Shown: piece by piece, positions 1 through 61,361 of the stretch
How the letters are laid out: every line of letters begins with the position of its first letter
Position numbering within the stretch: the stretch's first letter is position 1
NCBI GenBank assembly: GCA_964016885.1
Contig: OZ024755.1
Coordinates: forward strand, 9,734,001 to 9,798,000
Source of the DNA: Eledone cirrhosa
Taxonomy: Eukaryota
Length of the DNA: 64,000 nucleotides
Reading direction: 5' to 3'
The notes under the pieces: generated by a model
What the model saw: the letters and a program-made list of their open reading frames with translations, nothing else
What the model was told of the DNA's origin: nothing
Database searches by the model: none
Program-made: the position numbers and the translations under genes

Positions 1-199
1 TAATTATTTGTATACACGCACACACACACACACATATTTATATGTGCGTGTATTTGTATACCTATGGCAAGTGTTTTCGCGTATGCTTGTGTATGTACGT
101 GTATGGATGCGTGTATGTATTTATTTAATTTCAATTACCTCTGTATTTTATTTACTTTATTCTTAACTCTGAAGCGGAGAATCATTCGGTTTCCTAGTT

Positions 200-17859: not shown

Positions 17860-18629
<770 letters not shown>

Positions 18630-29065: not shown

Positions 29066-29413
29066 GGAGGCACATGGCTTAGTGGTTAGAGCATTGGCCT
29101 TGCAATCGAAAGGTTGTGAGTTCAATTCTCAGACCGGGTGATGTGTTGTTTCCTTGAGCAAGACACTTTATTTCACATTGCTCCAGTTTACTCAGCTGTA
29201 GAAATGAGATGATAGGGACTGGGGTGCCTATCATTCCACTGCAAAGTGGTCGTGGAGGTGCCACGGCAAAAATGCACCCAGCACTCACTGTAAATGAGGT
29301 TGGTGTTAGGAAGGGCATCCAGCTGTAGAAATCATGCCAGAATCAGTTCCCGTCCCACCCCTGCAAGCAGGGAAAAGTGGACGTAAAAATGAAATGAAAT
29401 GAAATGAAATGAA
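29066..29413 (+). mobile_element. Full-length tRNA-derived SINE with RTE-type tail
   Basis: A box TGGCTTAGTGG, B box GAGTTCAATTC, central GTTAGGAAGGGCATCCAGCTGTA, (GAAAT)n tail. Confidence 0.9.
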
Positions 29414-29415
29414 TT

Positions 29416-29754
29416 CATCATCATCATTTCATTTTACGTCCACTTTTCCCTGCTTGCAAGGGTGGGACGGGAACTGATTCTGGCTTGATTTCTACAGCTG
29501 AATGCCGTTCCTAACACCAACCTCATTTACAGTGAGTGCTGAGTAATTTCTTGCCGTGGCACCTCTATGACCACTTTTTAGTGGAATGATAGGGACCCCA
29601 GTCCCTATCATCTCATTTCTACAGCTGAGTAAACTGGAGCAATGTGAAATAAAGTGTCTTGCTCAAGGAAACAACACATCACCCGGTCTGAGAATTGAAC
29701 TCACAACCTTTCGATTGCAAGGCTAATGCTCTAACAACTAAGCCATGTGCCTCC
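29416..29754 (-). mobile_element. Full-length tRNA-derived SINE, same family, inverted
   Basis: Near-identical reverse complement of 29066-29390; truncated copies at about 14283-14530 (+) and 16630-16913 (-). Confidence 0.9.
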
Positions 29755-30309: not shown

Positions 30310-30351
<42 letters not shown>

Positions 30352-30406
30352 TGAGATTCTACAGGACTAGAACTGTTTCATTCTTTAGAAATCATCAGGA
30401 ATCTCA
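30352..30406 (-). ncRNA. Type I minimal hammerhead ribozyme motif (family A, left arm)
   Basis: Minus strand reads TGAGATTC-CTGATGA-tttctaaagaat-GAAA-CAG-ttctagtc-CTG-TA-GAATCTCA: 8-bp stem I, short stem II, stem III, GUA site. Confidence 0.75.
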
Positions 30407-30408
30407 AT

Positions 30409-30457
30409 GATTCCTGATGATTTCTAAAGAATGAAACAGTTCTAGTCCTGTAGAATC
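30409..30457 (+). ncRNA. Type I minimal hammerhead ribozyme motif (family A, right arm)
   Basis: GATTC-CTGATGA-tttctaaagaat-GAAA-CAGttctagtcCTG-TA-GAATC. Confidence 0.75.
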
Positions 30458-30540
30458 TCATCTATATTAAAACTTTTATACTCTGCAATGTATTGAGTAC
30501 CTTACTTACTGTGGTTACCTCCGATTCAACCCGGAATAAC

Positions 30541-37940: not shown

Positions 37941-37962
37941 AGTCTGGTTTCCTTAACTTCAT
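37941..37962 (-). CDS. Candidate alternative first exon of PFKFB (MKLRKPD+T)
   Basis: CAAC-ATG AAG TTA AGG AAA CCA GAC T|GTAAGG; 22 nt, phase 1, compatible with exon 2; in unique-looking sequence. Confidence 0.35.
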
Positions 37963-38305: not shown

Positions 38306-38474
38306 AACGAAGGAGTTGTGGTAAGGAACCAGATGGACCATAACGCACCAGAGTACTCAATACTTAGGGTAGTAGAGTGGGTAACAGAAAGTATGACCCC
38401 GACGGCAGAGCTCAAGCCGTTTCGACGGCTATTTCTGGACTCTTGAGCTCTGCCGTCGGAGTCATACTTTCTCC
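38306..38474 (-). mobile_element. Family B palindromic element
   Basis: Minus strand carries GAAA-CGGC-ttgagctct-GCCG-TC-GGGGTC; short inverted arm; flanked by (TA)n. Confidence 0.6.
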
Positions 38475-38602: not shown

Positions 38603-38636
<34 letters not shown>

Positions 38637-38720
38637 ATATGCAGTTGACAGCTGTGGGAAAGGAGTATTTAGTACCAAAGTAGAGTTTTAATATTCATTT
38701 TATTATGGCTGAATAGTGAG

Positions 38721-38826
38721 TCTTGTTACTCTGGAGTTTCGCCTGTTGATCACAGGGTCATCAGACAAGAACTTGATCCTGTCTGATGACCCTGTGCTAA
38801 ACAGGCGAAACTCCTGTGTAACATGA
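38721..38826. ncRNA. Back-to-back hammerhead pair (family C): 38721-38770 minus (intact), 38777-38826 plus (diverged)
   Basis: Minus strand reads TCTTGT-CTGATGA-cCCTGTgatcaACAGGc-GAAA-CTCcaGAG-TA-ACAAGA; all three stems pair. Confidence 0.8.
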
Positions 38827-39026
38827 TTCACTATTCAGTCTTAATAAAATGACGATATATATATGTGTGTGTTTGAGAGACGAGGAAAAAAAGAATAAGA
38901 ATAAAGAAGAGATGGAGAGAAAGTAAAAGAAGAGAAAGTAAAAGAAGAGAAAGTAAAAGAAGAGATGGAGAGAAAGTAAAAGAAGAGATGGAGAGAAAGT
39001 AAAAGAAGAGATGGAGAGAAAGTAAA

Positions 39027-46227: not shown

Positions 46228-46264
46228 CTGTTCCCCACCGATAAACATCGTATTCTAAGCCCAT
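46228..46264 (-). CDS. PFKFB: PFKFB putative first coding exon (MGLEYDVYRWGT+G)
   Basis: ATG at 46264, 37 nt, then donor CAG|GTAAAT. Phase 1 matches exon 2. Lies in a non-repetitive, CpG-richer region. No homology evidence for this exon itself. Confidence 0.6.
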
Positions 46265-48657: not shown

Positions 48658-50645
48658 AAAGTTTATATGGTTCGTTGATTATTCAACGAATACAATTTTA
48701 CAATAGATTAGAAGCACTCGACAATATTTTCTGGAGTATGCCACTATTGGAATTGAATAATCAAAACCGTAGCGGTATGTCGCATATACAATCTCACATA
48801 TATTTTATCTGATGAAAACGTACTTAAACACTATTGTACCTTTGAAATATGTATAATAACATATATATTTTGGTTATGAGAATATTTTTCATTTATTGAT
48901 ATTTTATAGTCTTTATTATGGTTAAGTGATGAGTCTTGTTACTTTCGAGTTTCACCTGTATACCCACAGGATCATCAGAATTAAACTTACCACTTAGCCT
49001 TAATAAAGAACATACATTCCTTAATGTAGTGTGTAGTTGAGTGTGTATGTCCTCTCTTGTCTTTATTTATTCATTTACTCAGACTAATTTTTATCGTAAA
49101 TCATATTTATATATATATACATATACAATATGTTTCTAAAAATAAAGTTTGCGCTCTTATTTTTAAATGCAAGTATATAAGATTTCAGTTTTTAAAAAGT
49201 TTATGAATAATTCAAATTTCAGACTAATATATTGTTTTAATAATAATTTTCTAAAATTAAACTGAAAAAAATTAAAATGTGTGATGTGATGTGATCACGT
49301 TTTGTTTCTGTGGAATATCGCATTGTTTATCTCATTCCCAGTAAATGTAAGTTAAATTTAGAACCAAGAAATAGTTAATAAGAACAACACCACGGAAGGT
49401 GGGAGCTTAGAAATTAGATAAAAGTAAACACGATAGAAGACAATTCTTCCCTCGTATCGTGTGAAATATTCTTTTAAATATAAAATCGTTACAGTTAGAG
49501 CAAATAGCACACCAAATTTCGGTGTTTTCAAGGAAATACAAAATAATTCACAACTTAAAACCTCTATGAGCGACCGATTATTTTAAATATAAATTTATTT
49601 GAGATTTAGTTGTTTAAAATTAATTATCCAGCATTATTCCTGATGTTTAGCCACAGGTCAGCCTTAAGTAGATTTATTATCAAAGACGTTTCAGCCTTCA
49701 CTATCCCATCTAGGAATGCATTTTTGGCTGCTATTTCTAGCGAGTAGAAGAGCGACAAGGTAGAAGCATCCCCAAGCTTTGTTATTTTTAGCTTTCGAAA
49801 CGAACGACTAGCAATGGTGTGTACTTCAGTATTCCTTAAAACATGTGTAATTAAGCTATTTTGGTGTAAATGTTTGTTGGTGGTTTGCTTAAAACAACAA
49901 CAAAAATTCGATTATGATTTCATTATATTAGAATTTCAAATTGATTAAATAAATCAGCTTTTTTCGTAACATTTTCAATGAAGAGTATTTACAGAACTAT
50001 AGATATGTTTATACTTTCATCGCATGTAGTATCGTCAATAATTGAAGATATTAATTTTTAAAAACTCAACATATAAAAAAGTCTTAATGTTGAGTAGATG
50101 TTTAATTAGTTAATCAAAATTCGTAATATTGGTTAGAGGAGAATATTGAGTTAGTTCGCTTAACGACTTCTTCGACCTTGAGCCAAGCATTGGGGGGGGG
50201 GCAAGGTTAAGGTTATTTCAAGTGCCACACCGAGAGGCGGGACCAACGTGTGTGAGTTTGTATGTGTAAAGCTGGCATAAACAGTCTTGTGAAATACAAG
50301 TAGGTTACGATCGTCATCCTTCGTATGAATATATATTAGGAACAGTATATTTATGACTTTCAAACCAAAAATTTCTAAATTTTCTCTTTAAAATTAACAA
50401 AACACCCATATTTATGATAAAAATTCATAAAAATGTCTTCACATTTTTTTTCTAACGATGTTGTCAACTATGTAAAACGAAGTATTTAGTGTCTTTTTTT
50501 TTTCTCAATAATGATCTCATTTTTATTTATCCACCCCACTTTTATTTTTCTCATGTTTATTAAATACTTTTATTATTCTCTACCATAAAACCATAAATAA
50601 ATATATCGTAAATAGATTTTTAATCAAATGATGAACAAACGATAA

Positions 50646-58127: not shown

Positions 58128-60874
58128 TTAATACTATTATCATAAACATTACCACCATCACCCCCCACCCCCCATTATCACCGCCACCACCACTTATTGA
58201 CATTGGATCTGACCATGGTGACACTATTCATTTCTGTCCCCCTCCTCTATAAGACTCCTTGTTGACATTTACCACTCCCCCCTCCCTCCTTACAATCCCC
58301 CATATCTGATGATAAATGAGATGGGGAGAGAAGACTTTGCTGACATCTCTCTCTCTCTCTCTCATGTAGTACCCATTTTTCATCCTCTCCTACCATGACA
58401 CAACCCAATTGCTATCCTGTAACCTTACTCACCCATCTAACCAGCACCACCACTACCATAACCCTCTCTCCCCTACCACCTTGCTATAGAAACCATGCCA
58501 AAAAACTGAACACACTGAGGTAGATGTAGTTCCTGCCCCCTCAGTCGACCAGCCCATCAAGGAGGACAGTAGCTTCAATTAAGTAGAGGCTGTCTATAAT
58601 GACCACTCCAATTTATAATAGCAAGGAAGAACGGATGTAAAATGATAATACAGGAACTTTGTACAGGATATTAATACCTACATGTATATACACATAGGTA
58701 TTAATATTCTGACATATACAGACATTTATGCATATACACAAATACACACACATATATATGTATATACACATACGTACATATATATATACACATACATACA
58801 TATATATATACACATACATACATATATATGTATATATAAGCTAGCAAGGGAAACAGACAGTAAATGTTTGTGTTTGTATGTGTGTGCGCACATGTATACC
58901 TATATTGATATCCTCTTCCATTTCTATAAGTAGTTTTCAATATAAAGGATGTTATGCAGACAATACTACCCCACCAGCTTTTGACATTGATCCCTACTGA
59001 TTTCAAGGTCAGCAGACCAATTAACCCCCAACCAGTCCAGGTTCTATCATACAAGTGTTATTTAAACCGGCCGTATCTGGACAGAATTCTCTCACCTCCT
59101 GTTCAAACCGGCTGTAACCGTCCACCCATACTTATGTTAAGGTATTGTTCTCAAAATAAATAACATCAAAATCTCATAGATTCAATATTATGTGAGGTAA
59201 AGCCTTTACCATGAAGATATAATAGTAAATATAGAGTAAGGTAAATGATAAAGGGTTTAACTGTTCATATTCATCTAAAAACTTACCAACAATTTTATAG
59301 AAGAACTTTTATAAAGTTGTGCTCCAAACATCAGATAAATAATGAGAAAATTATATCACTAAATCTTTCCAAATTTCAGATTATTTTCAACATTTGAAAA
59401 CCATATACATTAGAATTCATCATCATTATCACCGTTTAACGTCCATTTTCCATGCTAGCATGGGTTACAAAAGGGTTAAAGTGTTTATATTTATCTAAAA
59501 ACCTTCCATAATAATTCTATGTAAGAACCTTTAAGTTATGTTTTAAGCATCAGCTTAATAATAAAAAAGTTATATTACTAAATCTTTCTAAATTCTTGAT
59601 TATTTTCGAAATTATTTGAAAGTCATAGGGAGGGGTTTTTCACATTATACCACCACCAAGGCTAAGGCTGGTCTCATATCACCAACACCACCACCACCCA
59701 AACAAGACCTGGATCTCTATAATAAAGCTGGTCTCATACCACCATCACCACCACTCAGGCATGACCTGGTTCTCTGACCAACCCAGTCACAGTCAACACA
59801 TGCCAGTATGGAAAATAGATGCAAAATGATGATGATGATGACAATGATATGTGCATGCATAGAAGAATATGCTAAACATAGGGTAGAGAGGACCCTTCAC
59901 TTGTGTCAAAGATACGTCTTTAGTGCTGCTACCATAGTAGAGAGGGCATGTCACTCGTGTCAAAGATATGACAACTTCTCTAATGCAGGTGTTATCATAA
60001 AATTCACCCAGTACACTGTAGAGTGCTGGAATGTATGTGAGATTCAGGCCCCTGGCCCATCTGAATGGTCAGTTGCTCCAATTAAGTGCTGACAGTCTGT
60101 GGAAGAACAAACGTTAAATGATGATGATGATGATATGTTAAATGATATATGCAGTGGGGATTTATATGAGCACAAGAAATATATTCAGTAGTAAGTAAAT
60201 ATACGACACTTACCAAATGATAATCCTTGAGAATAGCAGGGCATATCTAAGACATATGTTGATGAGATAAGATAGAAGAAATATTTCACTGTCCTAACAG
60301 CAACTCGTGTCAAATAAATAATCAGATTTCTTCATACAGAAGTTTATATATACCAAAGAGTGTGTAACTGAGAGAAAGAGAGCGAGATAGAGAGGAGGAG
60401 GCCACCAGGAAATGTTTCAATAGCCTAAGCCTGAGTCATTTTAATTAATTTGTTTAAACAAAATATGACTAGAGAATCACATCCAGGAAAGTTCTTTAGC
60501 CCACACACACACAACTGATGTAAATACAAGATGAATTACAAACAGACAGAAATGATAGGGAAGACAATTTGCTCCAAAGATATTGTTAACCTTCAGAATA
60601 TAAAACAATGAAATCAAACAACCAGTATATATAGCATATACATATATATATATTATTGGCAATATGACCCTCCCAAAGCATAACAACATTATATATATAT
60701 CATCATTTCATTTTACGTCCGCTTTTCCCTGCTTGCAAGGGTGGGACGGGAACTGATTTTATATATATATATATATAATTGTTTCTACTTTAGGCACAAG
60801 GCCAGCAATTACCCAGTACATTACTGGTACTTTATTTTATCGACCCCGTAAGGATGAAAGGCAAAGTCATATAT

Positions 60875-61070
60875 AATGAAGGAAATGTGGTAAGGAACCA
60901 GATGGACCATAACGCACCAAAGTACTCAATACTTAGGGTAGTAGAGTGGGTGATAGGAACGAATAGGACCCCGACGGCTGAGCTCAAGCCGTTTCGACGG
61001 CTAATTCTGGGTCCAGAATTAGCCGTCGAAACAGCTTGAGCTCAGCCGTCGGGGTCCTACTCGTTCCTAT
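60875..61070 (-). mobile_element. Family B palindromic element
   Basis: 58-bp inverted arms 60953-61010 and 61013-61070; flanked by (TA)n. Confidence 0.65.
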
Positions 61071-61160
61071 ATATATATATATATATGTTATTCCGGGTTG
61101 AATCGGAGGTAACCACAGTACTCAATACATAGCAGAGTATAAAAGTTTTAATATAGATGA

Positions 61161-61259
61161 GATTCTACAGGACTAGAACTGTTTCATTCTTTAGAAATCA
61201 TCAGGAATCAGATTCCTGATGATTTCTAAATAATGAAACAGTTCTAGTCCTGTAGAATC
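61161..61259. ncRNA. Back-to-back hammerhead pair (family A): 61161-61209 minus, 61211-61259 plus
   Basis: Same motif as the 30.4 kb copy; 66-bp inverted arms with a 1-nt spacer and one mismatch. Confidence 0.75.
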
Positions 61260-61281
61260 TCATCTATATTAAAACTATATA

Positions 61282-61361
61282 TATAGGGTGTCTCAAAAAA
61301 TGTATACATACTTCAACAGCATTCTAATAAATGTGTATACATTTTTGGGGTACACCCTGTA
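61282..61361. mobile_element. Tc1/mariner-like mini-MITE, ~80 bp
   Basis: TA-(C/T)AGGGTGT...ACACCCTG-TA terminal inverted repeats; second copy at about 47397-47478. Confidence 0.7.

Follow-up and report, generated by a model that had tools for sequence, protein, structure and literature searches.

A back-to-back pair of hammerhead ribozyme sequences lies in the PFKFB gene of the octopus Eledone cirrhosa. The question raised by this locus is whether the copy that is sense to the gene cuts the host pre-mRNA, as was proposed in a preliminary description, or whether the pair has an origin unconnected with the host. The window, that is, the whole stretch of DNA that was analysed, is 64,000 nucleotides long; its features are collected in Table 1.

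The hairpin in the PFKFB intron

The inverted arms that had been described were recovered at 38695-38770 and 38777-38852; they are 76 nt long and 88% complementary. A type I hammerhead was located on the minus strand by a descriptor scan (C3 at 38764, N17 at 38727), and the same scan of 30 Markov-simulated windows gave no matches, which bears out the genuine fold claimed for this strand. The minus arm contains CUGANGA, GAAA, an NUH site and three helices with helix I open, and the GUA site is where it had been placed. Three paired stems had been reported: stems I (6 bp) and II (5 bp) hold, whereas the third pair of stem III (3 bp) would close a 2-nt loop, so that this stem is of the short, near-palindromic type. 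At position 10.1:11.1 a C.C mismatch is found in place of the canonical G-C pair; C.C are also the commonest letters at this position across 34 arms of the repeat family to which the hairpin belongs (family C). A search against Rfam at the gathering threshold returned no matches in the window.

About ten substitutions had been attributed to the plus copy. Over the extent given to the arms in the preliminary description nine differences were counted, seven of which are private to the plus arm when judged against the commonest family C letter and two of which are changes of the minus arm. The 34 sampled arms were those that could be aligned without gaps from 82 loci (90 loci less eight duplicates). 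The hammerhead core is intact in ten of them, core and all stems are kept in only one, and the minus arm of the window is unusually intact (three differences, against a median of seven). The window copy consists of one long arm and one short arm.

Table 1. Coordinates of the hairpin, of related repeats and of PFKFB exons in the window.
Feature	Position	Strand	Remarks
Long arm (hammerhead plus ~60-nt tail) of putative Hydra-clade Penelope-like family C	38635..38772	-	
Type I hammerhead, whole	38721..38770	-	Descriptor scan
Stem I	38770-38765 with 38726-38721	-	
CUGAUGA	38764-38758	-	
Stem II	38756-38752 with 38746-38742	-	C.C at 10.1:11.1
GAAA	38740-38737	-	
Short stem III	38736-38729	-	
GUA	38729-38727	-	Predicted cut 38727/38726
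Tail	38635..38692	-	On long arm only; in a long copy leads into 5' UTR and ORF start
Tail motif	38665-38690	-	Degenerate in window copy
Short inverted arm without tail	38775..38852	+	Core intact, stems I and III damaged; predicted antisense lock
(TA)n target microsatellite, left flank	38606..38634		
(TA)n target microsatellite, right flank	38855..38864		
Family A hairpins	30343-30540; 61085-61282		Long/short arm pairs; much younger, very abundant
Family B hairpins	38310-38472; 60880-61070		Third inverted-pair family; apex inside hammerhead
First shared PFKFB coding exon	18459..18596	-	End of host intron
PFKFB alternative first coding exon	46229..46264	-	Upstream of element; 10/12 residues as in O. 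bimaculoides isoform N-terminus
PFKFB alternative first coding exon, distal	60206..60250	-	E 1e-8
Probable candidate first exon of the preliminary description	37941..37962	-	ATG to GT donor, phase 1; without homologue support
SINE-like inverted repeat, same intron	29066-29754		323 nt, 95% complementary; likely editing substrate
Further CUGAUGA-bearing repeat	48800-48900	+	Weak stems; possible other Penelope-like end

The PFKFB exons are 90-98% identical to those of Octopus bimaculoides, and on the minus strand the coding exons extend from 18596 down to 879. From these exon positions and this orientation the hairpin is intronic and its minus arm is sense to PFKFB pre-mRNA, in an intron downstream of two first exons, just as had been stated. 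The candidate first exon proposed nearby has its ATG and GT in the right phase but matched none of the N-termini of 15 of the 21 members of the octopod PFKFB cluster. The window yielded no match to the commonest PFKFB first exon (MSLKSSV type).

By computation the full hairpin folds at -102.2 kcal/mol (z -19.8), compared with -45.7 kcal/mol when the hammerhead is enforced, a predicted penalty of 56.5 kcal/mol. The core bases are unpaired with a probability of at most 0.006 in the predicted hairpin, and opposite CUGAUGA, GAAA and GUA the arms are fully matched. An isolated arm is itself predicted to favour another fold (hammerhead P ~2e-4 in a model that ignores tertiary contacts). In minus-strand transcription the ribozyme arm follows the antisense arm (38852-38775). 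The idea that arm divergence weakens the antisense lock thus finds no support in these models, in which the core stays fully paired; per base the lock is only somewhat weaker (-0.64 kcal/mol) than in another hammerhead family, family A (-0.74 and -0.80 kcal/mol).

Covariation was examined in 31 aligned family C arms (29 of the 34 ungapped arms and the two window arms). Compensatory changes were seen in none of 15 stem pairs, and stem pairing amounted to 83.7%, compared with 84.0% after shuffling; the lack of compensatory pairs is as expected of dead copies of one master. Between families the stems differ and the core is retained.

An active minus-strand hammerhead might nevertheless cut PFKFB transcripts from the upstream promoters and so favour a downstream first exon, perhaps with A-to-I editing loosening the hairpin. 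The sense orientation downstream of two first exons would suit such a role, the minus arm is among the most intact, with two private changes against seven on the plus arm, and A-to-I editing is described as widespread in squid repeats. We regard this reading as highly improbable. The asymmetry between the arms falls short of significance (p=0.18), and among hundreds of copies an intact one is the kind that catches a reader's eye. The predicted pairing of the core, the poor showing of the lone arm and the order of transcription all speak against it, as do the C.C mismatch and the minimal stem III; editing would probably strike essential core adenosines as well, and the downstream exon is without homologue support. 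Metazoan Penelope-like hammerheads of this kind are reported not to cleave as monomers and to cleave weakly as dimers, with low activity overall (PMC4209133), and the hammerhead of an anole element is reported to have needed protein in order to cleave, with no RNA ends at its site (PMC11167929). The proposal that this copy is the best candidate for active cleavage in the intron is therefore unsupported by the models; the window ribozyme is predicted to be locked in the long hairpin and is probably inert in PFKFB pre-mRNA. For PFKFB the insertion is probably irrelevant; the intron contains many decayed repeats, of which this is one. Back-to-back hammerhead hairpins are themselves likely substrates for A-to-I editing.

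Family C and its relatives

Family C is a dispersed repeat: a first look gave 2051 candidates, the 40 scored ones showing 86-100% identity, and exact matches to three 30-31-mers numbered 300 (for one 31-mer), 33 and 168, with none for the reversed controls. The genome holds at least several hundred dispersed end-fragments of this kind, and the window element is one of them. On inspection of the flanks (which were not counted) the copies were found mostly in (TA)n or a similar microsatellite, as is the window copy.

Walking upstream through longer copies led into a long 3' UTR and then into a GIY-YIG-type endonuclease, a CxCx5C linker and reverse transcriptase (RT) sequence. The endonuclease region, 3' UTR and family C hammerhead were colinear on one strand in six of 17 ten-kilobase stretches (loci L103, L106, L107, L110, L134 and L137). 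At L208 the hammerhead and tail, preceded by an inverted arm, run on into a 5' UTR and the N-terminus of the ORF. The hammerhead unit thus occurs at both element ends, at the 3' end in these six stretches and at the 5' end in L208, although never at both ends of one copy. An RT followed by a C-terminal GIY-YIG domain and linked to a terminal repeat, as in endonuclease-bearing (EN+) Penelope-like elements, was pieced together from overlapping decayed copies; no single copy carries the whole path from RT to hammerhead on one strand, and L134 contains all of the parts but with its 5' half inverted.

The Hydra clade is described as defined by a C-terminal GIY-YIG domain together with RWK-, DKT- and CxCx5C-type motifs (PMC8557442). 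In translations of the decayed family C copies the first two were found in variant form (MKWK for RWK, ANKT for DKT), along with CNCRDQTQC for the CxCx5C linker, CHLC..E..N..CLH for the pattern of CxxC and CxH around E and N, and YRDD. Atlas leads comprised a GIY-YIG cluster at 0.95 and RT-bearing clusters at 0.87-0.91. A Pfam search with seven decayed ORF fragments returned no RT or GIY-YIG family, and a PDB sequence search gave one irrelevant match (E 0.51). From the motifs and a by-eye comparison with published proteins, in place of a tree, family C would belong to the Hydra clade; the preliminary description had not noted a Penelope-like origin.

Several loci had a more complicated history. 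An ORF upstream of the copy at L053/L072 was considered as the link between hammerhead and protein and was rejected, as it lies in a distinct nested element that has ends of its own. When the whole L208 locus was used as a query, matches to a different repeat dominated the output. L072 (G000:C7:72741000-72750999) is a long family C copy into which at least two other elements have inserted, and one of these has a 270-aa RT-thumb frame and a 5' inversion, with no in-frame endonuclease seen; the CUGAUGA-bearing repeat at 48800-48900 of the window is also nested there. In L134, L106 and L136 the ORF has its 5' part turned round with respect to its 3' part, an arrangement resembling that of twin-primed insertions.

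Family A is represented by 15,436 exact matches to one 30-mer. RT sequence follows its hammerhead on the same strand in three of 30 loci and is 34-56% identical to that of family C; near-intact RT frames lie after the hammerhead in L248, L256 and L266. A TATA box was found at -36 (counting, as throughout, from C3 = 0, so that the cut falls after +37) in ten of 11 picked copies, and the apices lie a few bases before the core. Upstream extension was seen in about half of the copies sampled, which makes the 5' wall weaker than in family C. The tails of families A and C align better than 993 of 1000 shuffles. Family C had been called unrelated to family A; this is true of the stems, whereas the tails share motifs and the proteins are similar to the extent given above. 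The architecture common to the two families points to a shared mechanism of transposition rather than to convergence on a host function.

In family B the GAAA, a long stem III with a palindromic loop and GUC are retained and the CUGAUGA is missing; its tail has a CTCTAC..GTATTGAGTAC motif in common with family C (3/1000 shuffles). A tail motif CTC-TAC..GTA-TT-GAG that can be folded as stem-bulge-stem, with differing inner stems and loops, occurs in the three octopus families A, B and C and, by eye, in Hydra-2_aMil, an element from a coral. This motif, which lies between the two priming sites proposed below, is a possible protein-binding signal.

Copy geometry and the origin of the hairpins

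For an unbiased view of the 5' ends, 58 copies were sampled by patterns downstream of the cut site; 60 loci had been fetched, of which L142 (the partner arm of L141) and L192 (the same place as L014) were dropped. The 5' start lies within -14..+38 of the core in 57 of the 58 copies (14 of these at -10..-7), which gives a sharp 5' boundary near -9, and one copy extends upstream into the UTR. The 3' ends are bimodal, with 31 at +61..77, two at +87 and 25 at +119..135. An adjacent inverted partner is present in 36 of the 58 copies; 25 of 35 classifiable pairs combine a long with a short arm (p=0.008) and ten are like/like. In a second, tail-selected sample of 30 copies (including four segmental duplicates and two places seen before) the partner was short in 12 of 14 cases. 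A deletion in the reference copy displaced some 5' values above +40, which are ~+44 to +61 as judged from the junctions. An inverted 5'-truncated copy with a one-sided tail is thus found in family C. Such copies and tails are described as typical of Penelope-like elements, and the way in which they form is stated to be open (PMC8557442). Insertion from self-cleaved RNA was rejected as the main route: none of the 30 tail-selected copies starts at +38, and starts at +37/+38 were seen in two of the 58 copies, at the edge of what the sampling pattern can reach.

Among 24 longer family C copies a TATA-like 8-mer occurs at -37..-40 in 22 and TTAGTT at -11..-6 in 16; the latter resembles an invertebrate initiator. 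A TATA box sits ~30 nt before the start of transcription. AT-rich words of this TATA-like kind are, however, common, and the AG at -9/-8 could be a splice acceptor instead of a transcription start, as is described for Drosophila Penelope (PMC4209133).

The family C hairpin very probably arose when the hammerhead-plus-tail end of a Hydra-clade element was inserted, abortively and as an inverted pair, in (TA)n, and its ribozyme is predicted to be locked and likely inert. The element RNA would start ~9 nt before CUGAUGA, as suggested by a TATA-like word at -39 and by TTAGTT. The endonuclease would nick both (TA)n strands, each nick would prime reverse transcription internally, at ~+74 or ~+130, and the two cDNAs would run off the 5' end of the RNA before being joined head to head. 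The ribozyme would serve the RNA of the element itself and not PFKFB, and would probably do so as a dimer or with the help of protein. Internal priming at two sites agrees with the behaviour in vitro of the anole element, for which nicking and extension of both strands, two internal start sites and the use of uncleaved RNA are described (PMC11167929).

Two other origins were weighed against this one. The hairpins could form a non-autonomous family copied whole from short masters, in the manner of retrozymes or SINEs: short copies far exceed long ones, as the single upstream extension among the 58 attests, and animal retrozymes are described as non-autonomous derivatives of Penelope-like ends (bioRxiv 10.64898/2026.07.22.740005). 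Whole copying is nevertheless improbable, as apex junctions and arm lengths vary between copies, 40 oriented loci had no foreign flank in common, and the same inversion occurs at various points in long copies (L106, L134, L136). Retrozymes are moreover tandem arrays, and only one of the 40 top-scoring places is tandem. A variant within the preferred explanation, with overlapping confidence, has a single cDNA fold back at the 5' end of the RNA, copy itself and end at the AT-rich +74 through microhomology to the target. In 14 of 36 pairs the two arms are truncated within 7 nt of each other, as such snap-back would predict, yet 11 of 22 unpartnered arms also end near +74, which therefore looks like a priming site in its own right, and both strands are described as nicked and extended in vitro (PMC11167929); on balance snap-back is rather unlikely, though less so than whole copying. 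At L031 (G000:C2:310208815-310209291) three tandem 173-nt family C units with microsatellite between them were observed, which may be a local duplication and not a retrozyme.

A farther-reaching reading of the two-nick insertion, which we put forward as tentative but quite possible, is that the hairpins are a fossil record of integration, in which two primers, one per strand, were extended from two fixed sites inside the 5' end of uncleaved RNA and ran off 9 nt before the core, the tail stem-loop being the landing site of the protein. If this were true, family A would provide a test system, given its near-intact RT frames and the 15,436 exact matches to one 30-mer.

Comparison with known systems

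Searches of the literature on hammerheads and octopus, on Penelope and twin priming and on Penelope and octopus returned nothing on these hairpins, and family C and its copy statistics were not found in the literature searched; repeat libraries fell outside this scope and may already hold an entry for the family. In the main text of the O. vulgaris repeat paper the words 'ribozyme' and 'hairpin' do not occur. Already published are the hammerheads of Penelope-like ends, the inverted 5' copies, the one-sided tails and the octopus Hydra elements, and a supplement lists an O. bimaculoides member of the Hydra clade (PMC8557442). What is offered here is an explanation of eye-catching back-to-back octopus hammerheads as by-products of a retrotransposon, which should put a stop to regulatory-switch readings.

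The closest relatives of family C would be the described Hydra-clade elements (Hydra-1_oBim, Hydra-2_aMil and Penelope-13_HM; PMC8557442), with which it shares a C-terminal GIY-YIG domain, RWK-, DKT- and CxCx5C-type motifs, (TA)n and a terminal type I hammerhead. Several of the published families have the same stem III (ACTC..GAGT), a pyrimidine mismatch at 10.1:11.1 is common in their hammerheads, and an inverted 5' copy that bears a hammerhead on either strand is described for Penelope-13_HM (PMC8557442). Family C differs from Hydra-1_oBim in its stems and is a separate family (PMC8557442). It is further distinguished from the published Hydra elements by a low-complexity 3' UTR of more than 1 kb, by the decay of all long copies seen and by the dominance of end fragments of 130-220 nt.

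With the minimal and canonical hammerheads described for metazoan Penelope-like elements (PMC4209133) family C has in common a short palindromic helix III, dispersed single motifs and pairs on opposite strands. The opposite-strand pairs described there are 100-700 bp apart, whereas the arms of family C abut, and family C lacks the G10.1-C11.1 pair of those type I hammerheads (PMC4209133). Non-LTR retrozymes (PMC7229834; bioRxiv 10.64898/2026.07.22.740005) are likewise described as non-coding, with a type I hammerhead and an origin from Penelope-like ends, but as head-to-tail tandems; family C consists of head-to-head pairs or single arms, and the window copy does not have the tandem arrangement of a retrozyme.

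The element PAc of Anolis (Poseidon clade; PMC11167929) belongs to another clade, and its tail is 30-40 nt long and lies inside the ORF, whereas that of family C is ~60 nt long and lies in the 5' UTR. Like family C it has a hammerhead at the start of the element and an AT-rich target, and two start sites of reverse transcription on an uncleaved RNA template define its tail (PMC11167929). The copy statistics of family C thus amount to a specific, testable model, in which the result obtained in vitro by Frangieh et al. 2024 (PMC11167929) would be carried over to another clade.
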